64,000 bases of DNA, taken from sequence record OK335775.1. The stretch is one strand, 5' to 3'. Both the position numbers and the translations under genes were made by a program. This document shows, in pieces, positions 7,137-59,393 of this stretch (within the stretch, counting starts at the first letter, position 1; each line of letters begins with the position of its first letter). The stretch is from Escherichia phage PSD2002. A model generated the notes under the pieces. That model did no database searches. It saw nothing but the letters and a program-made list of their open reading frames with translations, and was not told where the DNA came from.

Positions 7137-9224
7137 TTAATTCCTAGTAGGAGATTCTAAACAAGGTATGCAAATGGAAAGGGATGGAAATGCAATCGTT
7201 AAACCGAATATTCCCAGCATCTTATTAATCCATTGTACCACCTTACTTAAGGATAATGTTGATATTTGGTTATACATTGATTTGCACAAGTCTTTCATTG
7301 ACCTGGAACCATCAGTAAATTCGTGATATAAAGATTTTGCTTTAGTTACTGAGTTCTCGTATATAACCATGATATCATCTACAGTAGCTCCGAGCATACC
7401 GAGAAGTTCTTCCATTTGAGCCACAATAGGAAGTTTTTTGAATTCTTCTAAAGCCATATCTAATACATCAGAAACGGAGGTTTGACTTTCGGTAATAGAG
7501 TTCTTAATCTGATTATATTTATTCTTTAAAAGTTCGAGTGCAGCTTCAGCTTGTGCTAATGCGGCTTCCTTCTGAGCAGTTAGCTCGTCTGTAACTTTTT
7601 CGTACATTCCTGAAAGATATTGTTTAAATTCAATAGCTTGTTTTTGTACTTCTTGCTTTTTGAGCTTAATCTCATTCCACAGATTGAGTGCCTGGGTTTT
7701 AAGAGCCTCAATCATTGCATAAGCTTCGTCTATTTTCTGGTCTACCTTTTCCATAACCATTTGATAAACATCTGATGCTGTGAATCCTGGAAAGTTACCG
7801 CTCATTATCATGTCCAGTGGTTTAACTTGCTTCATCATTTCCTTGACCGCAGTAATAACGCTCCAAACTGGGTTCGGAACTATAGGAGGCATACTCCATA
7901 TTTGAGCGAGGTCTACACACAGTTTTGATAATGCAACACCAGCCATAAGCAATTGAGACCAGGCCCAGTCATACAAGTCTGTAATTGCATCAATAAGGTC
8001 ACGCGAATACATCTTGACGCGTTCAACCGAATAATCGTATGCAGACCCAATGGCAGAATAAATCGATTGGATGGTTTCTTCTAAATTAAAGTTTTTCCAT
8101 GCTTCTTTTAATTTCTGTACACCATCACCTGAAGTGCAGAGGTCTTCTAGGTCAATAGTCATGCCCATAATAGTAATCGAGGGTAAAAAGCTTTTAAGTA
8201 AGTCCCACCCACCGCCAACAATATCCAAGACCTGTGATATGGCATCTTTAAATGCAAGAAAAGCCATTTGCTGAACATATTGACACATAGCAACAGCTGA
8301 GTTGCCTAGCTCTTCCATTGCGACCGATAGCTTACTATAACCAGAATCGAAGAATTTTTCCCAATCGGTTCCACCAGATGATGGCCATCCAGGGAGCATA
8401 TCCCAATATAATTTGAATGAATTCCTAGATGTATTCCATGAAGCCATAATCGCATTGGTCAATCCGTTGTAAGGGAATTCCGCTGTAAAAGGAACACAGC
8501 TTATTGCCCTGGCTCGCCCGGTTATTTCTGGCGGTAAAGACCCGATGGATACCGGTCCCGGAATCGGAGTTCCTGGGATACTCATATCAACATCTAGATT
8601 TAATACCAGTCCAACATAAGTACAAGGTTTTGTCTCATAGTACTTCAAATAAGCCCTGCGGGAGTCACCAAGGCCGTTAAAGTTGACATACATATGATAA
8701 TCAGCCGTAACTGCAATCATCGTCCTGGGGTCCATTCTGGGGCCTTGTGATGTCCATACACCGCCACAGTTTTCGATGCGATACATATCATATTCAATAG
8801 ATGTTTTATACAATACAGATTTTGATAAATCAGCGCCGTACCAATCATTACCGGGCAAAAGAGTTGCACCAATCGATTCTACATAATTTTCTAAATCCAA
8901 TTGCGTAATAAAGAATATTCCGAGTTTAGCACACCAGATACCTTGACTTGTTCCATCTTCCGGTGGGGGAGGTGCAGGAAAAGTTTCGGACTTATTACCA
9001 AATGGATTTTGTGTGTATAAATGTGTAGCTAGTGGAATAATCTCGGTATCCCATTCAACGCCATTCCCAGGTTGAATAAAAGCACCTGTTGGGTTATATA
9101 ATTCCCATTTAACCCGGCGATATTCACCGGGTCCTACTGCGTCATCACAGGGACTTGTTACAGTCCCTACCACTTCATCAACTTTATCGTAGTAATTCAT
9201 ATTAACCGACCTGTACGTTGCCAC
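7137..9224 (-). CDS. large uncharacterised protein between gp5 and gp6 (695 aa; globular N-terminal two-thirds, C-terminal coiled coil and hydrophobic tail)
   Basis: Long ORF translationally coupled to gp5 (23-nt overlap) and gp6 (adjacent codons); occupies the slot where T4 has small genes 5.1-5.4; no motif I recognise. Confidence 0.7.
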   Translation of the reverse strand: MATYRSVNMNYYDKVDEVVGTVTSPCDDAVGPGEYRRVKWELYNPTGAFIQPGNGVEWDTEIIPLATHLYTQNPFGNKSETFPAPPPPEDGTSQGIWCAKLGIFFITQLDLENYVESIGATLLPGNDWYGADLSKSVLYKTSIEYDMYRIENCGGVWTSQGPRMDPRTMIAVTADYHMYVNFNGLGDSRRAYLKYYETKPCTYVGLVLNLDVDMSIPGTPIPGPVSIGSLPPEITGRARAISCVPFTAEFPYNGLTNAIMASWNTSRNSFKLYWDMLPGWPSSGGTDWEKFFDSGYSKLSVAMEELGNSAVAMCQYVQQMAFLAFKDAISQVLDIVGGGWDLLKSFLPSITIMGMTIDLEDLCTSGDGVQKLKEAWKNFNLEETIQSIYSAIGSAYDYSVERVKMYSRDLIDAITDLYDWAWSQLLMAGVALSKLCVDLAQIWSMPPIVPNPVWSVITAVKEMMKQVKPLDMIMSGNFPGFTASDVYQMVMEKVDQKIDEAYAMIEALKTQALNLWNEIKLKKQEVQKQAIEFKQYLSGMYEKVTDELTAQKEAALAQAEAALELLKNKYNQIKNSITESQTSVSDVLDMALEEFKKLPIVAQMEELLGMLGATVDDIMVIYENSVTKAKSLYHEFTDGSRSMKDLCKSMYNQISTLSLSKVVQWINKMLGIFGLTIAFPSLSICIPCLESPTRN

Positions 9225-10989
9225 CAGATACTTTAGCTAATGAACCGCCATCCATATGCACAGTATTTGATGCGTTTAAATTAATGTTCGTCGCTGCAAA
9301 ATTTAAATCTTGTTCGACATTTACATCCATATTTTGAGCATTGATTGTGGCCTTTTGTTTAACGCTTATATCTGCATTCTGGTTGACATTAACTGTTGTA
9401 TCTTTTTCAACCGTAATATATGCTTCTTGTTCAACAGTTATATCAGCAGTACCCATAATAACTATTTTAACATTTCCTTTAACAAGCAGAGTTCCATTAC
9501 CTTCTACAGTTTTGGTTTCATTCCCTCGAATATGAATGCTTTCAGACCCATCAGTTTGACGGCGCACGTTTGCCATATTATAATAGGTTTCATCGCCACC
9601 AACGTTGACTTTATTATTACCACCAACATAAGTATTTGAATCGCCTTGGGTCATATAATAACCATCGGCTACCGTCTTAGAAGTTTTACGTCCATCAGGA
9701 GCAACTTCTTCATAACTACCGGTAGGATGGATTAAACGGTATCGTTCTTGCCCTGGGGTATTATCGAATTCTTGGATATGCCCGCCTTCAGTTTGCATGG
9801 TTTGGACATATGGATATTCGCCTTTATAACTAGAATCAGGTTCTTTAAAAAGAATCCTTGTGTCTTCTGGAGTCCACGGGTCGGCAGGGTCTGAATTTGT
9901 AGGGGCCACAAAGGTTTGAATCATTCTATACGAACGGCCATTAAATGACCTTTCTTTAGGGGCCATAATACCATATGATTCCATGTTACCTGTGAGGATA
10001 ATCATTGACACCCTTGATGCGCGACCTTTAGTTTGGTTAAACCATACCGAATTACGGGCTTCTTCAAATGCCTTTTTATAATCGCCTATTAACATTGCAC
10101 TAAGCATTCCACGGAATTTAGCAAGCCCACCTAATCCCATTTGGAAAGCCATGTTTTCAAGAGCCATTTGTCTCGAACGGTTTTCTTTATTATAAACAGG
10201 ACCTACAACACTATGCAGGCCTATATCATTTTGGACTTTTTTAAGGTCGTCTTGGAATAATTTAGAAACCTCGTCCATTGATATTGCACCAGGGTTACCT
10301 TTAACTTCTCGTCCTACCTGATTAGATAATATTTTGTTTATTTGATTCATATCTCTAATAGGTTGTGGCGTAATAAGGTGACCTATACCTATAGTAGGAT
10401 AACCTTCGGTATCCCAATATACCTTCAGTCTAAGCCCTTCATCACGATGAAGCATGTTTTCTATTGTGAAATTAGGATTATCATCAGGCTTGACTTGGCT
10501 CAAATCCAAACCGTCTGGGTTAATACCTACATCGGTGTTTGCATCTTGTATTACGTTGGAAGTGGCATCATATCCAACTTCACCACCTCGGTTTAAAGCC
10601 GCGGCATCATTACCTAAATAAAGTGGGTATTGACCTGTCGGGTCGCTAAAACCTTCATTAGGATTAGCCTTTTGTCTTGAAGCGGAACCGTATGTACCAA
10701 GGACCAGTCCGTTTAATTTCCACTTATCAAGAAAATGCCCATAAACCTGTGTACCAGGAACCATACCGGTCATGGCGGTTTGAATACCTGAAACAGAGGC
10801 TGAAGATGTAGGCATTAATACCGACATCCATGGTAAATCTTCTGTACGAAGGCCTTTTACTGGACCTTGCACTTTTTCGTATGGATGCATGCCCCATACG
10901 CGCACGCGTACTCGGCCTTGTTGGAGTGGGTCCATTCGGTCTTCAACTACGCCGACGAACCAACTGACATTATCAGACATGTTAATCAT
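9202..10989 (-). CDS. 5: baseplate hub subunit and tail lysozyme gp5
   Basis: 595 aa; N-terminal OB region NVSWFVGVVEDRMDPLQQGRVRVRVWGMHP; lysozyme segment DEGLRLKVYWDTEGYPTIGIGHLI; C-terminal repetitive VxVxxN beta-helix. Confidence 0.9.
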   Translation of the reverse strand: MINMSDNVSWFVGVVEDRMDPLQQGRVRVRVWGMHPYEKVQGPVKGLRTEDLPWMSVLMPTSSASVSGIQTAMTGMVPGTQVYGHFLDKWKLNGLVLGTYGSASRQKANPNEGFSDPTGQYPLYLGNDAAALNRGGEVGYDATSNVIQDANTDVGINPDGLDLSQVKPDDNPNFTIENMLHRDEGLRLKVYWDTEGYPTIGIGHLITPQPIRDMNQINKILSNQVGREVKGNPGAISMDEVSKLFQDDLKKVQNDIGLHSVVGPVYNKENRSRQMALENMAFQMGLGGLAKFRGMLSAMLIGDYKKAFEEARNSVWFNQTKGRASRVSMIILTGNMESYGIMAPKERSFNGRSYRMIQTFVAPTNSDPADPWTPEDTRILFKEPDSSYKGEYPYVQTMQTEGGHIQEFDNTPGQERYRLIHPTGSYEEVAPDGRKTSKTVADGYYMTQGDSNTYVGGNNKVNVGGDETYYNMANVRRQTDGSESIHIRGNETKTVEGNGTLLVKGNVKIVIMGTADITVEQEAYITVEKDTTVNVNQNADISVKQKATINAQNMDVNVEQDLNFAATNINLNASNTVHMDGGSLAKVSGGNVQVG

Positions 10990-11591
10990 TAGAGGGCTTT
11001 CTCCATTTCTCTAATTAAAGCGGAAACAAAGGACTCGATGTCATTAGGGTCTATAATCTTTATTTCGCGCTTATATTCATTTTTACGAATGGCGTCCTCG
11101 TAAATATCTACTGCAGCCAAAGGACCTTCATATTGAGGATAACGTTTTTCTGTATCACCTTTATCGTACCAAGTATAAGGATTTTCCGGAGTATTTACTA
11201 GATTCCAGAATTTCTCACCCTTTTCATTGACATGATAAAGGACTTGGTTTCCGCCTGCAGTAGCATAACGTTGAATAGCTGCTTGATACGCAGATTCTTG
11301 GCCTGTAATCCAGCCGTAATAAGGGTCATATACGTTATTACACATCAATAAAACCCAATATAATTGCACGTTACCATAAAGTTGATGGGCTAATTCTTCT
11401 GGACGAGGGGCCCCACTGATATAATATGTTTTAAGTGTATAATTTTTAGCCACTTTATCAAAATATTCTTTATAGTTTCTAAATATATCAGTCATCGGTA
11501 CGCTCAGTACATCGGCATCAGTTAATGAGCCGGAATCTGGCTTGACTGTTTTTGATTCGTAATTTATAGGATCGAAAAATGAGAAGAGCAT
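10989..11591 (-). CDS. 53: baseplate wedge subunit gp53
   Basis: 200 aa (T4 gp53 is 196 aa); position upstream of gene 5; divergent late promoter immediately upstream. Confidence 0.75.
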   Translation of the reverse strand: MLFSFFDPINYESKTVKPDSGSLTDADVLSVPMTDIFRNYKEYFDKVAKNYTLKTYYISGAPRPEELAHQLYGNVQLYWVLLMCNNVYDPYYGWITGQESAYQAAIQRYATAGGNQVLYHVNEKGEKFWNLVNTPENPYTWYDKGDTEKRYPQYEGPLAAVDIYEDAIRKNEYKREIKIIDPNDIESFVSALIREMEKAL

Positions 11592-11603
11592 AGTGCCTCC
11601 GAG

Positions 11604-11611
11604 TATAAATA
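11604..11611 (+). promoter_or_regulatory. late promoter (TATAAATA) for gene 4
   Basis: Plus-strand TATAAATA 26 nt upstream of the gp4 ATG, followed by AAGGAGG. Confidence 0.6.
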
Positions 11612-11618
11612 ATATTAA

Positions 11619-11626
11619 TATTTATA
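11619..11626 (-). promoter_or_regulatory. late promoter (TATAAATA) for gene 53
   Basis: Minus-strand TATAAATA about 25 nt upstream of the gp53 ATG, followed by GGAGG. Confidence 0.6.
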
Positions 11627-11636
11627 AGGAGGCACT

Positions 11637-12086
11637 ATGGCCTACTCAGGGAAATTTAAACCTACAAACTTACAAAAATATAAAGGTGATTGGAAGAAAA
11701 TCCAATATCGTTCCTCTTGGGAAGCATGGCTTATGCGTTGGCTTGACAACCATCCTAATGTCGTCCAGTGGAACTCGGAAGAGGTTGTGATTCCATATTT
11801 TAGTAACGCTGATGGAAAGAAACGTCGGTATTTTATGGACTTCTGGGTGAAGTTCGACAATGGTCAACAATTCTTTTTCGAAGTCAAACCTTTTAAAGAG
11901 ACCCATCCTCCAGCGGCGCCTGCTAAAATGACTACAGCTGCTAAAAAGAGATATATCAACGAACATTATACATGGAGTGTAAATAAAGATAAATGGAAAG
12001 CTGCTAAAGCTACAGCAGATAAAATGGGAATTAATTTCAGATTGATTACCGAAAACTCACTGAAAAAATTAGGATGGAAAGGATGA
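11637..12086 (+). CDS. 4: head completion protein gp4
   Basis: 149 aa; [19 protein letters not shown]... resembles T4 gp4 as I recall it (about 150 aa); synteny 53/4/2/3/1. Confidence 0.8.
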
Positions 12087-12910
12087 GTATATTTTCTTAC
12101 ATCAACGAGGCTACTGAAACTACAAAAGGTTCCAAGCCTACTCGTTCAGAACAACAATGGATAACTTTAGGCGTTGAATATGCCAACGCTAAGGCTAAAG
12201 GTGTTTCGGCTAAGAAATTCGCTGAAGATAAAGGCATCAAGTATTCTAGCTTTACATCTGCGATGTCTCGATACTCGAGTCGAATTAAAACTGCTGTACA
12301 GGTTGAAAAACTTCAGAAGAAACCTGGCAATAAATTAACCAAAGCCGAACGTCAATTAATTTTGGTGAATAGTTTTAGAAAGAGTATTCGCGATAAGATT
12401 GCTAACGAAGGCGCTGCCGTAAACAATAAATCAGCTAAATGGTTTACAGAAACATTAAAGAAAGGAATTCGTGGACACCAGGTATCTAAACCGTCTCCTG
12501 GTAAGCTTTATGCTTATATCTATGATGCCAAACATAAGGATACCCTACCATACTGGGACAAATATCCTTTAATAATTTATCTTGGGTTAGGTAAGCATAA
12601 TTTAATGTACGGACTGAACTTACACTATATTCCACCTAAAGCACGTCAGCAATTTCTGGAAGAATTGCTGAAGCAATACGCGAGTACGCCTACCATTACG
12701 AACTCGACTAAATTAAAAATCGATTGGAGTAAGGTAAAAGGATTCGCTGGCGCCGACGTGATGATTAAGGCTTATATCCCTGGAAATATTAAGGGACCTT
12801 TAGTAGAGATAAAACCGTCTGATTGGGCTAATGTCGTAATGATGCCGCTCCAACAGTTCATGTCTAAAGGCAAGCGTTATTCAGCTCAGAAAGTATGGAA
12901 GAATTCATAA
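12083..12910 (+). CDS. 2: DNA end protector protein gp2
   Basis: 275 aa from the ATG overlapping the gp4 stop (ATGA); T4 gp2 is 274 aa; an alternative in-frame ATG lies at 12074. Confidence 0.7.
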
Positions 12911-12992
12911 TCTATTATCCCAGCCAGTTATTGAATGGAACAGACCTAGGACCATTATACACTGTCTGGGACTTAAGCAATATAGGAACCCT

Positions 12993-13583
12993 ATGAACGG
13001 TTTATTTAACCAAACTAACACTACTAACTTTATCTTAGAGGTTAGTGACGCAGGAATGACGCAGGCATTCAAATTGAACGTACAAGATGTAACACTACCG
13101 GGTATCCATATTCCGGTCTCAGACGTCCCGGGATCGACCCAGGGCATACATCGTGCTAAGCTGCCAGGTTCTACGGTAGAATTCGATCCATTGATTGTGA
13201 ACTTTCTTGTAGACCGTGAATTGAAATCATGGCTTGATGTTTATAAGTGGATGTTGTCATTAAACAACTATGTAACCCATGATTCAGAAGCCTGGCACCC
13301 TAAAGGACAACCGGAAGCTATCACCCTCCACATCCTTGATAACAACAAACAAAAAATCGTAATGAGCATTCATTACTACGGTGGTTGGCCATCTGACCTC
13401 TCGGAAATCCAGTACTCTTATAAAGAGGATTCTGACCCGGCGATAATCGCCACAGCAACATTCAACTTCAAATCGTTTGCTGTAGAAATAGATGGTACAA
13501 TAGTTACAGGTCGTCCACAAATTGATTCGTATGCCGAACAACGAGTGGCTCGTATGTCTATGCATCCATCTATGAGAAAATAA
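12993..13583 (+). CDS. 3: tail completion / sheath stabiliser protein gp3
   Basis: 196 aa ORF in the T4 gene 3 position between genes 2 and 1. Confidence 0.6.
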   Translation: MNGLFNQTNTTNFILEVSDAGMTQAFKLNVQDVTLPGIHIPVSDVPGSTQGIHRAKLPGSTVEFDPLIVNFLVDRELKSWLDVYKWMLSLNNYVTHDSEAWHPKGQPEAITLHILDNNKQKIVMSIHYYGGWPSDLSEIQYSYKEDSDPAIIATATFNFKSFAVEIDGTIVTGRPQIDSYAEQRVARMSMHPSMRK

Positions 13584-17960: not shown

Positions 17961-18425
17961 ATGAAAACTTACAATGAATTTTTGACTGAACAATCTAGTT
18001 CAGATGTAAAAGCCGCTGCTATTGCAGCAATTCAAGCAGGTAAATATTCTTACAAAGACGCCTCTGATGAAGAACGTTTCCGTTTTATTAAAGATTTTAA
18101 AGCCGAAGGTTTTACTAATGCTAATACTGTTAGCCGAGTTTTTAAAAGCCTAGCTGCATCAGGTGAATTGTTCCAGAAAGCTACAGGTAAAGCACCTGCG
18201 TCAAAAGCGGACCCTAAAGCCGCTCAAGAAAAAAATATCGCCAAAGGAATTATTTCTAAGTATGAAGCAATTCTTAAAGAGCTTTTAGTAATCAAAACAG
18301 AAGGCCAGAAACTGGCACGAGCACATAGCTTCAAAGATAATCCACATGCTCACGACTTAGAGTATGTTGAAGATATTCAGAAAATCATCAAAGACCGTAT
18401 CTGGTCTGCTAAACAAATCAAATAA
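17961..18425 (+). CDS. internal-protein-like protein
   Basis: Starts MKTYNEFLTEQ; 154 aa. Confidence 0.6.
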   Translation: MKTYNEFLTEQSSSDVKAAAIAAIQAGKYSYKDASDEERFRFIKDFKAEGFTNANTVSRVFKSLAASGELFQKATGKAPASKADPKAAQEKNIAKGIISKYEAILKELLVIKTEGQKLARAHSFKDNPHAHDLEYVEDIQKIIKDRIWSAKQIK

Positions 18426-26110: not shown

Positions 26111-26137
26111 TATAAATACCTCCTATACTCAGGAGGT
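26111..26137 (+). promoter_or_regulatory. late promoter TATAAATA plus SD-sequestering hairpin upstream of gene e
   Basis: TATAAATA at 26111-26118; ACCTCCT (26118-26124) pairs with AGGAGGT (26131-26137), which contains the SD. Confidence 0.6.
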
Positions 26138-26140
26138 ATT

Positions 26141-26635
26141 ATGGATATTTTTGATATGTTACGTCAAGACGAAGGTCTTGATTTAAATCTTTATAAAGAC
26201 ACTGAAGGTTATTGGACTATTGGCATTGGCCAATTGATTACTAAGAACCCTTCTAAAGATGTTGCTCGTGCTGAACTTGATAAGCTTATGGGTCGAGTTT
26301 GTAATGGTCGTATTACTATGGCTGAAGCTGAACAACTCTTTAACCGATCGGTTGAAAATGCTCGTAGAGCTATTCTGCGTAATCCTAAATTGAAACCTGT
26401 TTATGATGTACTGGACGAAGTTCGTCGTTGTGCTTTAATTAACATGGTCTTCCAAATGGGTGAAGCAGGCGTAGCAGGGTTCACCAACTCTTTACGTATG
26501 CTCCAACAGAAACGTTGGAACGATGCGGCAGTTAACCTGGCTCAATCCCGTTGGTATAAACAAACTCCTAATCGTGCTAAGCGCGTGATTTCAACATTTA
26601 AAACAGGTACTTGGAAAGCATATGAAAACTTATAA
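26141..26635 (+). CDS. e: lysozyme (endolysin) E
   Basis: 164 aa; closely resembles T4 lysozyme, including E11, D20, T26 and [41 protein letters not shown]. Confidence 0.95.
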
Positions 26636-27723: not shown

Positions 27724-27774
27724 GTTTACATCTCCTGTAGTCATGATACTATAGACCTATCAACTACAGGAGAT
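27724..27774 (+). promoter_or_regulatory. early promoter / stem-loop cassette (PeSL-like) upstream of denV
   Basis: GTTTAC (27724) ... TGATACTAT (27744); inverted repeat ATCTCCTGTAG (27730-27740) / CTACAGGAGAT (27764-27774) encloses the -10 and sequesters the SD. Confidence 0.6.
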
Positions 27775-27779
27775 TAAAA

Positions 27780-28196
27780 ATGACTCGTATCAACCTTACC
27801 TTAGTATCTGAATTGGCTGACCAACACTTAATGGCTGAATATCGTGAATTACCACGTGTTTTCGGTGCAGTTCGTAAGCATGTTGCTAATGGTAAACGTG
27901 TCCGTGATTTCAAAATCAGTCCTACTTTTATCCTTGGTACAGGTCATGTTACATTCTTTTACGATAAGCTTGAATTTTTACGTAAGCGACAAATTGAGCT
28001 TATAGCCGAATGTTTAAAACGTGGTTTTAATATCAAGGATACTACGGTCCAGGACATTAGTGATATTCCTCAGGAATTCCGTGGCGACTATACTCCACAC
28101 GAAGCTTCTATTGCTATATCTCAGGCCCGTTTGGACGAAAAAATTGCACAACGCCCTACCTGGTACAAACATTATGGTAAGGCGATTTATGCATAA
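27780..28196 (+). CDS. denV: endonuclease V (pyrimidine dimer DNA glycosylase)
   Basis: 138 aa; closely resembles T4 DenV from the N-terminal [31 protein letters not shown] onward. Confidence 0.95.
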
Positions 28197-33238: not shown

Positions 33239-33517
33239 ATGGACCTAAATTCAAAGATTTTAATTCTAGCGTTCGCTGTGGCTATTTCTTATATTGTTCT
33301 TTCGCCTATCATGGATGATGTGGCTTACAAAAGAGAGATAGAGGTTGTAGCAGCGACGTATAATGCTAATAATAAAGAATGTCCTAATAAAAATGGGATG
33401 GATTTAATTAAAGCGCATTATATGCTTTCCATTAACTCGCCTATACAGAGGAATTGGGTTGAATATAATTTTAACGACGTGTTCTATTCTTATTGTCGTA
33501 AGCTTAAAAAGCTATAA
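33239..33517 (+). CDS. small membrane/secreted protein
   Basis: N-terminal hydrophobic segment ILILAFAVAISYIVL. Confidence 0.4.
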   Translation: MDLNSKILILAFAVAISYIVLSPIMDDVAYKREIEVVAATYNANNKECPNKNGMDLIKAHYMLSINSPIQRNWVEYNFNDVFYSYCRKLKKL

Positions 33518-33609
33518 ATAATAATACTAACCGTAGAGCTTTAGCTTTTGGTAATCGCTATCGGTTAAGGCCGAAAGGCAAATAGTATAAAACAACAAAG
33601 GACTTTTGT

Positions 33610-33903
33610 ATGGATATTTTCCGTACAGCGGCTTGTATCCTTATGGCGGGATGTTTAAGCCCTACAGTTTCACTAGCAAATAATACTCACGATAAATTGA
33701 TGGATGCATTTGCTAGTAGTGCGATGCCTGTTTATGCGCAAATGAGTAGACCTAGCATAAAGGCCTCCGAAGACTATTGGGCCTATGTTACGGCTTCCTG
33801 GAAGATTTCAAGTTGTCAGACTGTAGAAACATGCTCAATTGAAGGTCGTGCCATCGGAGAGCGTTATGTAAAACTAATGAAGGTGGAAGATGAAGTTCAA
33901 TGA
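33610..33903 (+). CDS. small secreted protein
   Basis: Signal-peptide-like AACILMAGCLSPTVSLA. Confidence 0.4.
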   Translation: MDIFRTAACILMAGCLSPTVSLANNTHDKLMDAFASSAMPVYAQMSRPSIKASEDYWAYVTASWKISSCQTVETCSIEGRAIGERYVKLMKVEDEVQ

Positions 33904-43797: not shown

Positions 43798-43890
43798 ATG
43801 GAGGCTCTTATTACGGTATTTTGGGTAGGAGTTGTTTTATTCGGATTGTTGTTAGTGCTAAGTTACACTGCTAAACTATTAGGATATTAA
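43798..43890 (+). CDS. hydrophobic micro-protein (30 aa)
   Basis: MEALITVFWVGVVLFGLLLVLSYTAKLLGY; overlaps the upstream stop; below the ORF-track cutoff. Confidence 0.3.
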   Translation: MEALITVFWVGVVLFGLLLVLSYTAKLLGY

Positions 43891-43925
43891 TAAATACCCT
43901 TATCTAATAATGGTAAGGGTTTATT

Positions 43926-44399
43926 ATGTTGTTGACCGGCAAATTATACAAAGAAGAAAAACAAAAACTTTATGATGCACAATGTGGTAAGTGTTTGATT
44001 TGTAAACGTGAATTAAACCCTGATGTTCAAAGTAACCACCTTGACCACGACCATGAATTGAACGGGCCAAAAGCCGGTAAGGTTCGTGGTTTACTATGTA
44101 ACCTGTGCAATGCTGCAGAAGGACAAATGAAGCATAAGTTCAACCGTTCTGGTCTTAAAGGTCAAAACGTTGACTACCTCGAATGGTTAGAGAATTTGCT
44201 GGTCTATCTGAAAGCTGATTATACTGAAAACAATATTCATCCTAATTTCGTTCCTGATAAAACCAAAGAGTTCAGCAGGTTAGGTAAGGAAGAAATGATT
44301 GCTGAAATGCTTTCACATGGAATGACTTATAATGAATCTGACACTAAGAAACAAATGGTCGATTCATTTAAAAAACAACTGAGGAAATCGCTTAAATGA
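43926..44399 (+). CDS. 49: endonuclease VII (Holliday junction resolvase) gp49
   Basis: 157 aa; closely resembles T4 EndoVII (MLLTGKLYKEEKQK ... NHLDHDHELNGPKAGKVRGLLCNLCNAAEG). Confidence 0.95.
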   Translation: MLLTGKLYKEEKQKLYDAQCGKCLICKRELNPDVQSNHLDHDHELNGPKAGKVRGLLCNLCNAAEGQMKHKFNRSGLKGQNVDYLEWLENLLVYLKADYTENNIHPNFVPDKTKEFSRLGKEEMIAEMLSHGMTYNESDTKKQMVDSFKKQLRKSLK

Positions 44400-47427: not shown

Positions 47428-47985
47428 ATGACCGAAATTAAACTGACTAAAAATAACTATGTAAATAATAAGGAGCTTCTGAAAGCTATTACCCAATGGA
47501 AAACAGAGCTCAGAGAAAATACCGATCCTAATAAAATAGTTCGCCAGAACGACGTTATTGGCTTGGCTATTATGCTCATTGCTGAAGGACTAAGTAAACG
47601 TTTCAACTTCTCAGGGTATACCCAATCCTGGAAGCAAGAAATGATTGCTGATGGAATCGAAGCTTCTATTAAAGGTCTTCACAACTTCGACGAAACAAAA
47701 TACGACAACCCACATGCATATATCACTATGGCTTGTTTTAATGCCTTCGTTCAGCGTATCAAAAAAGAACGTAAAGAAATGGCAAAGAAATATAGCTACT
47801 TCGTCCATAATGTCTATGACAGTAATGATGACGACATGGTAGGTATTGCAGATGAAACCTTTATCCAAGATATCTACGACAAAATGACTCAGTATGAAAC
47901 CTCTTTAACTAAAGCACCAGGGTCTGATAAGAGTGCCGAACCTAAAGTCGGTGAACTGGATTTTTTATATGGAACATCAGATTAA
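47428..47985 (+). CDS. 55: late-transcription sigma factor gp55
   Basis: 185 aa; closely resembles T4 gp55 (NYVNNKELL ... [55 protein letters not shown]). Confidence 0.9.
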
Positions 47986-52973: not shown

Positions 52974-53672
52974 ATGAAATTCTCTAAAGAAACTCTGAAC
53001 ATTCTGAAAAACTTCTCCGGTATTAACCCAGGTATCATGCTTAAACCTGGTAACACTATTCTAACTCGTTCAGTAACGGGTGCAAGTTATGGTGAAGCTA
53101 CTGTAAATGACACCTTTGATATCGAAGCCGCAATCTACGACCTGAACGGCTTCTTAAGTATTCTGTCATTGGTATCTGAAAGTGCTGAAGTTTCGGTAAG
53201 TGAAGACCAAACCACTTTAATTATTAAAGACCAACGTTCAACTATTAAGTGGCCTATTGCCGACCCAAGCACAATTGCATTCCCAAGCAAAGCTATTCCA
53301 TTCCCGGTGGCTGAAGTTATTTTTGACCTTAAAGCCGAAGATTACCAGCAGTTGATGCGTGTGTCCTCTGGACTGAGTATTGATACATTTGCTATTACTG
53401 TAGACAATGGTAAAATTGTAATCAATGGCTACAAACAAGTTGATGATAAGGACCTGGCCCGTCCATTGTATTCCTTAGTGGTTGCAGACCATGATGGCCC
53501 TGAATTCAAATTCATTATCAACAAAACTAATATGAAAATGATGCCTGCCGATTACCATGTATTGTTATGGGCCCGTGGTGAAGGCCAGGACGCTCGTTTC
53601 GCAGCCAAGTTTGAAGGTTCACAAGCTTCTTATGTATTGGCTATGGAAGCAGGCTCAAGCCACTCGTTCTAA
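52974..53672 (+). CDS. 45: sliding clamp gp45
   Basis: 232 aa; N-terminus resembles T4 gp45 (LKNF..IN.GIMLK ... AIYDLNGFL.ILSLV). Confidence 0.9.
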   Translation: MKFSKETLNILKNFSGINPGIMLKPGNTILTRSVTGASYGEATVNDTFDIEAAIYDLNGFLSILSLVSESAEVSVSEDQTTLIIKDQRSTIKWPIADPSTIAFPSKAIPFPVAEVIFDLKAEDYQQLMRVSSGLSIDTFAITVDNGKIVINGYKQVDDKDLARPLYSLVVADHDGPEFKFIINKTNMKMMPADYHVLLWARGEGQDARFAAKFEGSQASYVLAMEAGSSHSF

Positions 53673-56374: not shown

Positions 56375-56393
56375 GGGACTTCGGTCCCTTTTT
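56375..56393 (+). terminator. UUCG hairpin with T-tract upstream of gene 43
   Basis: GGGAC-TTCG-GTCCC followed by TTTTT. Confidence 0.55.
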
Positions 56394-56451
56394 GGAGTAT
56401 AATAATTCATCAACAAACAAAAGACAATCACTCGTCTATAAAGGAAATGAA

Positions 56452-58159
56452 ATGCAAGAATTCTATTTGACAGTCGAACAAATCGGTGATAATATTCTCG
56501 AACGTTACATCGATAAAAATGGTAACGAACGTAGTCGTGAAGTTCCATACAAGCCTACAATGTTTATGCATGCTAATCCAGAGCAAGCCGTAAAATACAT
56601 TGATATCTATGGTAAGGGTTGTGTTAAGAAAGAATTCGATTCTATGCGTGATGCATCCCAATGGATGAAACGTATGGATGATATGGGTCTCGAAGCCCTG
56701 GGTATGGACGACTATAAATTAGCCTATTTGTCTGATACCTATCGTAAAGAAATCAAATATGATTCTTCTAAGATTCGTATTGCTAACTTCGACATCGAGG
56801 TAACATCTCCTGATGGATTCCCTGAACCAGCTCAGGCTAAACATCCTATCGATGCCATTACCCACTACGACTCGATTGACGATAAATTCTATGTATTCGA
56901 CCTTTTAGTTTCGCCTTATGGTACTGTTGAAGAGTGGTCGATTAAAATCGCTGAGAAACTCCAAGACGAAGGTGGTGACGAAGTTCCACAGGAAATCATT
57001 GACAAAATCGTTTATCTTCCGTTTAATTCTGAAGAAGAAATGATGCTTGAGTACTTGAATTTCTGGCAACAGAAAACTCCTGTGATTTTGACTGGATGGA
57101 ACGTTGAGTCGTTTGACGTACCGTACGTTTATAACCGTCTGAAAAATCTGTTCGGTGAGAACACTGCTAAGCGATTAAGCCCACATCGTAAAACTCGCGT
57201 TAAAGTTATTGAGAACATGTACGGTGCTCGTGAAATCATTACATTGTTCGGTATCTCTGTTCTGGATTATATCGACCTTTATAAAAAATTCAGCTTCACC
57301 AACCAGCCTTCTTATTCTCTGGATTATGTTTCTGAATATGAATTGAAAGTGGGTAAGTTGAAATATGATGGTCCAATCTCTAAGTTACGTGAGACGAACC
57401 ACCAACGATATATTTCCTATAACATTATCGACGTATATCGTGTTGTGCAAATTGATATGAAACGCCAGTTCATTCTTCTGAGTTTGGACATGGGTTATTA
57501 TGCCAAGATGCAGATTCAGTCGGTGTTCAGTCCAATTAAGACTTGGGACGCTATTATCTTTAATAGCCTTAAAGAACAAGGCAAGGTAATTCCACAAGCT
57601 CGTTCGCACGTGGTCCAACCTTATCCTGGCGCTTTCGTTAAGGAACCGATTCCTAACGCTTACAAATACGTAATGAGTTTCGACCTTACATCTCTGTACC
57701 CGAGTATCATTCGACAAGTGAATATAAGCCCAGAGACCATCGCAGGGACATTCGCTAACGCACCGATACATGAATATATTGCTGGAACTGCTCAGCGTCC
57801 TAGCGACACCTACAGTTGCTCTCCTAACGGCATGATGTATTATAAAGACCGTGAAGGTGTGATTCCTACAGAAATCACCAAGGTATTCTTGCAGCGTAAA
57901 GAACATAAAGGTTATATGCTTGCAGCTCAACGTAATGGTGAGTTAATTAAAGAAGCATTGGAAAATCCTAATCCCTCAGTTGATAGTCCACTGGATATCG
58001 ATTATCGTTTTGACTTCTCCGACGAAATCAAAGCCCAGATTAAAGCACTGTCAGCGCCTTCTTTAAGAGAAATGTTGAAGAAAGCCGAGCTCACTGAAGT
58101 TGCAGGTAACACTGCTCAGATTAACCGTAAGTTGCTTATCAACAGCCTGTATGGTGCGT
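56452..58159 (+). CDS. 43: DNA polymerase gp43, exon 1 (N-terminal exonuclease domain and start of polymerase domain)
   Basis: Starts MQEFYLTVEQIGDNILERYIDKNGNE after AAAGGAAA; ends ...NRKLLINSLYGAL; the unspliced frame hits TAA at 58168-58170. Confidence 0.85.
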
Positions 58160-58389
58160 TAACCAAATAACTCGGCGCACTTTAAACTATGTGAATTCAG
58201 GGAACATCTCTAGTAGACAATCCTGAGCGAAGCCTCTATGAGGAACGTGCAACGACTATCCGAAAGGAGTACACCCAAGTGGGTGGAAGCGCATAGCATC
58301 GAAAGATGATGATATAGTCTGCTCTGCATGGCGACATGCAGCTGGATATAATTCCGGGCTGAGCTTAACGACCTCAGTTGAACACCGTG
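58160..58389 (+). ncRNA. putative self-splicing group I intron (ORF-less, 230 nt) in gene 43
   Basis: Exon GUGCGU pairs with intron GCGCAC (58175-58180) with U.G at the splice site; GACUA (58254) and UAGUC (58315) form a P7-like pairing; terminal G at 58389; splicing restores GAL-GNVWFRYYD. Confidence 0.65.
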
Positions 58390-59393
58390 TGGGTAACGTC
58401 TGGTTCCGCTACTATGATTTGCGTAATGCAACTGCAATCACACTGTTCGGTCAAATGGCCCTCCAATGGATTGAACGTAAGGTTAACGAATATCTGAATA
58501 GCGTGTGTAAAACTGAAAACCAGAAGTTCGTGCTCTATGGTGATACTGACTCCATTTATGTTAAGGCAGATGCAATCATCAATAAAGTAGGCGAAGATAA
58601 ATTTCGTGACACTAACCACTGGGTCGACTTCTTAGATAAATTTGCACGTGAACGTATGGAACCAGCTATTGATGCAGGCTTCCGTGAGATGTGCGAGTAT
58701 ATGAACAACAAACAGCACTTGATGTTCATGGACCGAGAAGCTATCGCAGGTCCTCCACTTGGTTCTAAAGGTCTTGGTGGATTCTGGACAGGCAAGAAAC
58801 GTTATGCACTGAACGTTTGGGACATGGAAGGTACTCGTTATGCCGAACCGCACTTGAAAATCATGGGCCTTGAAACTCAGAAATCAAGTACACCTAAAGC
58901 AGTTCAGAAAGCTCTGAAGGAATGTATCCGTCGTATGCTTCAGGAAGGCGAGGCATCTTTGCAAGAATATTTCAAACAGTTTAATAAGGAATTTAACGAA
59001 CTCAACTATGTAAGCATTGCAGCAGTATCCAGTGCTAACAACATCGAGAAATATAATGAAGGTGGATTCCCGGGTTCTAAATGTCCATACCACATCAAAG
59101 GTTGCTTAGCTTACATGCGTGCTTCTGCAGGTGATTTGACTATGCCTCGTATCGTTGATGGTGAAAAGGTATATGTACTGCCACTTAAAGAAGGCAACCC
59201 GTTTGGTGAAGCTTGTATGGCATGGCCGTCAGGTATTGAACTTCCGGTTCAGATTCGTGACCAAGTCCTCCGTTGGATGGACTACAACGTACTGTTCCAA
59301 AAGACCTTTATCAAGCCTCTGACCGGTTTTACTGAGTCTGCTAAAATCGACTACGAGAAAAAAGCAACATTATTTGATATGTTCGACTTTTAA
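58390..59393 (+). CDS. 43: DNA polymerase gp43, exon 2 (C-terminal polymerase domain)
   Basis: GNVWFRYYDLRNATAI ... YGDTDSIYV (polymerase motif C) ... SLFDMFDF; no SD upstream of the in-frame GTG. Confidence 0.85.

Follow-up and report, generated by a model that had tools for sequence, protein, structure and literature searches.

Two genes of Escherichia phage PSD2002 (OK335775.1), 53 and 4, diverge from a gap of only 45 bp, and this gap is filled by a near-perfect palindrome. Does the symmetry serve a function of its own, or does it follow from the expression signals that the gap contains? We addressed this question in a 64-kb window (the whole stretch of DNA that was analysed, 64,000 nucleotides, to which all coordinates refer unless stated otherwise). 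The window belongs to a Dhakavirus of the JS98 group (JS98/QL01-like), and the 1.1 kb around the site is 100% identical to Escherichia phages QL01 and LQ5, the QL01 record being in reverse orientation. Gene order is that of T4, with 5-53 on the minus strand and 4-2-3-1 on the plus strand. Gene 53, followed by gene 5, heads a leftward late unit, and gene 4, followed by genes 2 and 3, heads a rightward one; the gene 4 product is 100% identical to proteins annotated as gp4 'head closure' or head-completion proteins. Read on the plus strand, positions 11589-11639 are CAT-AGTG-CCTCC-GAG-TATAAATA-ATATTAA-TATTTATA-A-GGAGG-CACT-ATG (Table 1). The positions that a preliminary description of this DNA had assigned to the two opposed boxes proved exact, and the succession of box, GGAGG and ATG that it had reported is indeed seen on both strands.

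The answer that we favour is that the gap is a control region orthologous to that of T4, with two opposed late promoters that are predicted to be gp55-dependent and active, lying face to face and 7 bp apart; from the sequence comparisons below we regard this as very probable. The promoters face each other because the plus-strand box lies to the left of the minus-strand box. The palindrome is mainly a by-product of this arrangement, in which a box, a ribosome-binding site and a start codon each occur once per strand within 51 bp.

Table 1. Features of the gene 53/gene 4 gap and related features elsewhere in the window.
Feature	Position	Strand	Remarks
Gene 53, baseplate wedge subunit	10989..11591	-	200-aa ORF; Pfam Phage_gp53, E 9e-73
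Gene 4, head completion protein	11637..12086	+	149-aa ORF; TnsA-like N domain
Near-perfect palindrome, 51 bp	11589..11639	.	12-bp perfect outer arms and 8-bp box arms
Weaker imperfect extension of the palindrome into the first codons of both genes	11580..11648	.	21-nt arms, 86% complementary
Gene 53 ribosome-binding site GGAGG	11596..11600	-	4 nt before ATG (complement of 11589-11591)
TATAAATA box, putative gene 4 late promoter, positions -13 to -6	11604..11611	+	exact match, upstream of gene 4; conserved in T4 and relatives
Spacer ATATTAA between the boxes, 7 bp	11612..11618	.	length common to T4 and RB69-like phages
TATAAATA box, putative gene 53 late promoter	11619..11626	-	exact match, upstream of gene 53; relatives carry TATAAATA or AATAAATA
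Gene 4 ribosome-binding site TAAGGAGG	11625..11632	+	GGAGG core 11628-11632; 4 nt before ATG at 11637
Exact TATAAATA box upstream of ORF 17961-18425			ORF matches phrog_2280; weak match to internal virion protein
Exact TATAAATA box upstream of lysozyme gene e	26111		
Exact TATAAATA box upstream of a 97-aa ORF			ORF with hydrophobic N-terminus
gp55, late sigma factor, trans-acting	47428..47985	+	phrog_234, E 9e-69
gp45, sliding clamp activating late transcription, trans-acting	52974..53672	+	gp45-slide_C, E 1e-34
Candidate sigma-70 promoter TTGACG-17-TATAAT, antisense in gene 5	9556..9584	+	11/12 consensus match only
Endonuclease VII	43926-44399		

The late box of T4 occupies positions -13 to -6 (PMC1524935), and the 8-bp element, with T or A at -13, suffices for a T4 late promoter, neither a -35 element nor a site-specific activator being needed (PMC2988020). 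Applying the -13 to -6 rule to the window places the predicted start for gene 4 at 11617 (+), which gives a 20-nt leader, and that for gene 53 at 11613 (-), which gives a 22-nt leader. The distance from the end of the box to the ATG is 25 nt for gene 4 and 27 nt for gene 53, and the spacer between Shine-Dalgarno (SD) sequence and ATG is CACT on both sides. Both predicted starts fall inside the 7-bp spacer that forms the loop of the hairpin, and the predicted transcripts overlap by 5 nt. Leaders beginning at these starts are unstructured (-7.6 and -5.4 kcal/mol; z -0.6 and -0.9). The two sites thus have, at the level of sequence, what marks a gp55-type late promoter: the 8-bp box, its position 20-30 nt ahead of the ATG of a late gene, and conservation of the box amid diverged flanks. 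It is from these features that we infer promoter activity and start sites.

The number of boxes contributes nothing to this assignment. In the 128 kb of strand that make up both strands of the window, TATAAATA is not enriched, with 5 exact copies against 8.0 expected and 137 copies with one mismatch against 157 expected, and the 8-mer by itself carries little information. The argument for late promoters therefore rests on position and conservation rather than on counts. As to position, each of the five exact boxes immediately precedes an ORF of its own strand, and two of the five fall in the 53/4 gap, in opposite orientations; by a hand estimate from the box counts, a given gap of 45 bp would contain one box per strand with a chance of about 6e-6. 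The window also encodes two trans-acting components of the late machinery, gp55 and gp45 (Table 1), and going by the T4 map we expect the gp33 gene to lie outside it.

As to conservation, we collected the region from about 45 loci of relatives. The orthologous site of T4 (NC_000866 77338-77384) reads CAT-GGGCCCTCC-TGTT-TATAAATA-TATTATC-TATTTATA-AGGAGAATCCA-ATG, with two exact opposed TATAAATA boxes, a ribosome-binding site and ATG after each, and a gap of about 47 bp. Comparison with this T4 region, to which the preliminary description had pointed, thus recovers the same two opposed boxes and the same 7-bp spacer in flanks that have otherwise diverged. The T4 flanks are asymmetric (GGGCCCTCCTGTT vs AAGGAGAATCCA), whereas the outer arms in the window match perfectly over 12 bp, and the full T4 read-through hairpin folds at -14.6 / -16.6 kcal/mol (z -0.5 and -1.75, no better than shuffles) against about -33 kcal/mol in the window. 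Opposed boxes between 53 and 4, with spacers of 6-15 bp, occur in at least eight other T4-like lineages. They are present in every Dhakavirus examined; in Kanagawa-, Mosig- and Tequatrovirus, RB69-type phages and Acinetobacter-type contigs; in Gaprivervirus and several further lineages, where the minus box is AATAAATA; and in the Krischvirus JSE, where the plus box is GATAAATA. When 12 diverse sequences are aligned, the box columns are invariant except for position -13 of the minus box, and the flanks vary; A at -13 is common in T4, where it is found at 9 of 50 late promoter sites (PMC2988020). The parts that are conserved are the boxes, ribosome-binding sites and start codons only.

A pair of promoters at this place has been predicted before. 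For RB69, Nolan et al. (2006) listed late promoters at 80613 (+) and 80684 (-) (PMC1524935, Additional file 5), and these bracket the 4/53 gap, gene 4 being at 80177-80626 (-) and gene 53 at 80688-81263 (+). The late promoters predicted in that work lie only 5' of late-gene orthologues (PMC1524935), and the RB69 pair (Pl:80613 and Pl:80684) is, like that of the window, an overlapping divergent one in the 4/53 gap. RB69-like contigs share the two boxes and the 7-bp spacer; they differ in a gap of 61 bp, in flanks that are not palindromic and in a gene 53 that appears to start with TTG. The promoter pair is a conserved feature of the T4 family, already published as a prediction for RB69, and the element in the window is known in kind, as the orthologue of the gene 4/gene 53 late promoter pair of T4 and RB69. 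Its only particular feature is the perfect outer arms, which are those of a QL01-type sublineage. The preliminary description had proposed late expression in both directions from a symmetric element: the two late promoters stand as putative assignments, favoured by the opposed boxes in T4 and other genera, by the RB69 prediction and by the gp55 and gp45 genes of the window, while the role given to the symmetry found no support. Our literature search for palindromic or bidirectional late promoters found no specific description, and the T4 records AF158101 and NC_000866 carry no annotated promoter features. For annotation, the value of the site is that it would mark the starts of two late transcription units, the public records of this phage listing coding sequences only.

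The face-to-face arrangement suggests how the two promoters might work. Late in infection, the gp45 clamp would activate host RNA polymerase that carries gp55 and gp33, and the DNA would be opened at one of the two boxes. A start at about 11617 would lead to rightward transcription of genes 4-2-3, and one at about 11613 to leftward transcription of genes 53, 5 and further baseplate genes; each late mRNA would have a short unstructured leader in which GGAGG stands 4 nt ahead of the ATG. Each box would lie inside the initially transcribed and melted region of the other promoter, and the melted regions (about -12 to +2) of both promoters would share 11612-11618. gp55 reads the box as single-stranded non-template DNA at -12, -9 and -8 (PMC7892883). 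Because the boxes share a melted region, there would probably be one open complex at a time per DNA molecule. Clamp activation in T4 is polar, with a direction set by the strand that carries the loading nick (PMC1524935, PMC2988020, PMC7892883). Since the direction of activation in T4 follows the nicked strand, the choice of promoter here probably depends on clamp orientation, and each of the two promoters would be served by clamps of a different orientation. We deduce both points, the mutual exclusion and the role of clamp polarity, from the geometry of the gap and from T4 biochemistry on other promoters. The gap would be a natural, compact template for studies of the choice of late transcription direction by clamp orientation and of promoter interference.

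We now turn to the symmetry itself. The almost perfect 42-bp inverted repeat of the preliminary description is real but longer, extending over 51 bp and including both start codons. Each of the outer arms (11589-11600 and 11628-11639) is a perfect 12 bp made up of a start codon, a 4-nt spacer and a ribosome-binding site. Between the outer arms and the box arms is an asymmetric 3x1 internal loop, with GAG facing A, and the centre is 7 nt. The palindrome ranks first among the short-range inverted repeats of the 64-kb window. Its folding energy is -32.9 (+) and -33.6 (-) kcal/mol for RNA and -13.8 kcal/mol for single-stranded DNA, with z-scores of -7.9 to -8.3 (-8.1 for single-stranded DNA) and 0 of 200 shuffles as good. 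The inverted repeat exceeds chance.

Exceeding chance is a different matter from being selected as a symmetry, and the close relatives bear on the latter. Among Dhakaviruses, the sixth base of the left arm is T, G or A, and the right arm has CAC, CAAC or CGAC. The combination T+CAC is found in the window, QL01, MX01 and IME540; G+CAC in KIT01; T+CGAC in phage 005; G+CAAC in JS98, IME281, AnYang and dhabil; G+CGAC in IME341; and A+CGAC in VR5. The arm variants thus occur in nearly all combinations, the two sides varying independently, and most of them break the perfect arm. In JS98, VR5, IME341, KIT01 and phage 005 the outer arm is broken in different, uncorrelated ways, and beyond the obligatory signals the outer arms are unconserved even among phages that are about 90% identical. 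The four extra matching bases per arm of the window lineage are unconserved. Covariation is absent from the 12-sequence alignment: both partners had changed in 3 pairs, compared with 2.4 when columns were shuffled, and 224 of 500 shuffles attained 3. Only one pair is free to vary, and its bases do not match in 8 of the 12 sequences; the other pairing comes from the invariant columns of boxes, ribosome-binding sites and start codons. Because the extra arm bases vary independently, without covariation, the symmetry as such does not look selected, or at most weakly so and in the window lineage only.

The folding energies can be divided along the same lines. We used an element-preserving randomisation in which start codons, ribosome-binding sites and boxes were fixed and everything else was random. 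With nothing but these elements kept, folding still yields about -15 kcal/mol, compared with a CAT-to-ATG minimum free energy of -24.6 kcal/mol in the window (p 0.002 against the element-preserving random sequences). About two thirds of the stability is automatic once each strand carries these three signals. The remaining stability is lineage-specific and evolutionarily unstable. JS98-type relatives fold at -19 to -21 kcal/mol (p 0.014 to 0.06) and other genera, including T4, at -7.7 to -17.7 kcal/mol (p 0.1 to 0.8); JSE folds at -18.4 kcal/mol with a p of 0.004 that is partly inflated, as the mask missed the longer JSE ribosome-binding site. Since the hairpin of the window is stronger than the obligatory elements explain, some added selection on symmetry or RNA structure may have acted in particular lineages. 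The perfect outer arms of the QL01-type sublineage look like a recent, unstable state. More generally, the palindrome serves as a caution: three expression signals present on both strands suffice for strong symmetry.

What could such added selection have acted on? One candidate is RNA, where the palindrome would also be a translational gate in the style of T4 e, soc, 49 and I-TevI, adding to the promoter function rather than replacing it. In longer transcripts, folding would bury the ribosome-binding site together with the AUG, for gene 4 on one strand and for gene 53 on the other, each gene's ribosome-binding site acting as the anti-SD for the other gene, and RNAs from the late starts, without the 5' arm, would be translated. 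The predicted folds agree with this, SD and AUG being fully paired in the read-through RNA of either strand and the late-start leaders being open. T4 offers documented cases of a late promoter within a hairpin by which longer transcripts made earlier are silenced (PMC3014915). Late transcripts of e, soc, 49 and I-TevI likewise begin too far downstream to include the 5' arm, which in longer transcripts helps to bury the ribosome-binding site (PMC3014915); those T4 genes have a dedicated anti-SD 5' arm and documented early read-through, whereas in the window the anti-SD is the other gene's ribosome-binding site and the stem is unconserved beyond the obligatory signals. The design recurs elsewhere in the window: the TATAAATA box of gene e at 26111 precedes a hairpin formed by CCTCC...AGGAGG (-14.1 kcal/mol), the AATAAATA of gene 49 at 43889 precedes a hairpin that is also of -14.1 kcal/mol, and an SD-sequestering hairpin with an embedded sigma-70-type promoter lies at 27725-27779, upstream of an ORF at 27780. 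Early transcripts run in the direction of gene 4 (PMC2988020), and the T4 annotation has early antisense transcription in gene 5 (oriE, repEA, repEB). The sigma-70 candidate antisense in gene 5 (Table 1) lies at the place that matches T4 oriE/repEA-repEB and is a possible source of read-through toward gene 4, made plausible by this T4-like early antisense position together with the 11/12 match. Sigma-70-like matches are, however, unenriched in the region (11 against 12.5 expected), so that the candidate stands on its 11/12 score and the T4 oriE position only, and a terminator-like hairpin with a T-run at 11526-11544 (+) may stop read-through first. An ORF at 10830-10967 resembles T4 RepEB at its ends; such a resemblance is expected because gene 5 is conserved on the opposite strand, and we did not count it as gene evidence. 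The hairpin itself arises automatically from mirrored boxes and ribosome-binding sites, and its existence alone is therefore no evidence of selection. Its excess strength in the window lineage (p 0.002) speaks for a gate; against one, covariation is absent from the 12-sequence alignment, close relatives have lost the extra pairing and most genera show none (p 0.1-0.8; z -0.5 and -1.75 for T4), and among the relatives a stem stronger than coding and initiation signals account for was found only in the window lineage and JSE. We therefore treat a gate of this kind as a tentative and rather unlikely addition to the face-to-face late promoters, and we consider it unlikely that the mirrored region has been sharpened into a two-way gate in the QL01-type Dhakavirus lineage. 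If it had been, early or antisense read-through would be silenced at both genes by one hairpin of about -33 kcal/mol.

The other candidate is DNA. The preliminary description had suggested that the palindrome might form a cruciform or bind a dimeric factor, and a symmetric site of this sort could coordinate or switch both promoters. The single-stranded DNA hairpin, at -13.8 kcal/mol per strand with a z of -8.1, belongs to the top-ranked inverted repeat of the window, and the T4 protein DsbA has been reported to bind, though weakly, AT-rich sites overlapping two late promoters; T4 late promoters, however, need no site-specific activator, and DsbA is without effect in vitro (PMC2988020 for both). 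The arms of the window palindrome contain the 3x1 asymmetry around a 7-nt centre, their outer parts are unconserved, each side changing on its own from one close relative to the next, and outside the boxes and ribosome-binding sites T4 and most genera have no symmetry. Endonuclease VII cuts cruciforms, and because the phage encodes this enzyme (Table 1) a stably extruded cruciform would be a hazard. With the non-obligatory parts of the arms unconserved and the T4 hairpin no better than shuffles, a cruciform or dimeric-factor role of the symmetry is unsupported, and we hold it to be very improbable. A hairpin that is very stable on both strands might also be taken for a bidirectional terminator or an insulator between the two late units, and bidirectional terminators are known elsewhere in T4-like genomes (PMC1524935). 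A terminator scan did not call the site on either strand, though, and no U-run follows the stem, which is followed by GCCUACUC on the plus strand and by CUCUUCUC before the Us on the minus strand; moreover, both neighbouring genes start at the site rather than converge on it. We reject an intrinsic terminator, as a T-run follows neither arm, and a terminator or insulator function in the broader sense seems to us the least credible of these roles.

The reading as two face-to-face late promoters can finally be set beside two other pairs of late boxes between divergent genes. The RB69 26-like/51 pair, Pl:118620 (+) and Pl:118672 (-), is likewise a palindromic pair of divergent late promoters, and it occupies a short gap that separates baseplate genes. 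Its boxes differ from those of the window in standing back to back with a 4-bp overlap, TATTTATAAATA (L043 442-453), so that the transcripts do not cross each other's box. In the KVP40-like Vibrio phage phi-ST2, the gp48/gp4 gap likewise separates divergent late genes and has two opposed late-type boxes upstream of gene 4, again a palindromic pair. There the box is CTAAATA, the boxes are again back to back (TATTTAG ... CTAAATA), and the neighbour of gene 4 is gene 48 rather than gene 53.

Two genes in the window place a predicted late promoter within a hairpin. At the lysozyme gene e, an exact TATAAATA, the T4-type (gp55-dependent) late promoter box, lies at 26111. A hairpin, CCTCC-TATACTC-AGGAGG, with a folding energy of -14.1 kcal/mol (z -2.9), comes directly after this box and pairs the ribosome-binding site. 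The predicted late start of gene e (~26124) falls downstream of the hairpin's 5' arm, as in the classic T4 gene e arrangement. Gene 49 follows the same late-promoter-in-hairpin design, with a variant box, AATAAATA, at 43889, 5' of the ORF, and an initiation region covered by a hairpin, CCCTTA...TAAGGG, whose folding energy is -14.1 kcal/mol (z -3.4).

A 17-nt inverted repeat (ATCTCCTGTAGT / ACTACAGGAGAT) at 27725-27779 immediately precedes ORF 27780-28196 and pairs the AGGAG ribosome-binding site of that ORF. A sigma-70-like promoter, GTTTACA...TACTAT, appears to be located within this repeat, and its own transcripts would therefore lack the 5' arm. The ORF begins with MTRINLT, a start that may be denV-like.

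ORF 33239-33517 ends within a further exact TATAAATA, at 33513-33520, and 89 nt separate this box from the downstream ORF 33610-33903. The downstream ORF encodes a 97-aa protein with a hydrophobic N-terminus, which may be rI-like. The leader of this ORF is much longer than those at the other four exact boxes in the window.

A back-to-back pair of late boxes was also identified in the relative RB69, where the gap between the 26-like gene and gene 51 contains a perfect 12-bp palindrome, TATTTATAAATA (L043 442-453, equivalent to RB69 118641-118652), that consists of two late boxes with a 4-bp overlap. This pair agrees with the published predicted pair Pl:118620 / Pl:118672 (Nolan et al., 2006; PMC1524935).

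Features identified in the window, with coordinates and strand
Feature	Coordinates	Strand	Remarks
Sigma-70 consensus match, 11/12	9556-9584	+	Antisense; position corresponds to T4 oriE
45-aa ORF	10830-10967	+	Antisense; ends resemble T4 RepEB
Terminator-like hairpin with T-run	11526-11553	+	Antisense; ~50 bp before the palindrome between genes 53 and 4
Lysozyme gene e	26141-26635		Late box and hairpin upstream, region 26105-26145
Gene 49, endonuclease VII	43926-44399		phrog_423; upstream region 43885-43935
DNA polymerase gp43, two ORFs	56392-58170 and 58389-59393		~218 bp between ORFs

Three of these features lie antisense to genes 5 and 53. The RepEB resemblance of the 45-aa ORF is expected, because gp5 is conserved on the opposite strand.

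Beyond the studied kilobase around the 53/4 gap, the window is not identical to its close relative QL01. Between genes 5 and 6 the window encodes a 695-aa protein of unknown function (phrog_5296; ORF 7137-9224, minus strand), where the QL01 record has genes 5.1 and 5.4 (PAAR). QL01 also carries a homing endonuclease between genes 2 and 3, whereas the window has none there (12910-12993). At position 1 of the IME540 (L049) and KIT01 (L044) loci, gene 53 is adjoined by a 636-bp ORF, whose annotation reads Seg-like homing endonuclease or hypothetical protein, rather than directly by gene 5. The presence of this ORF in these close relatives points to mobile-element traffic beside the 53/4 locus.

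The two gp43 ORFs match positions 4-528 and 527-852 of the PHROG DNA polymerase profile, and the gene could be split, carry a small insertion or contain a frameshift that arose in sequencing.
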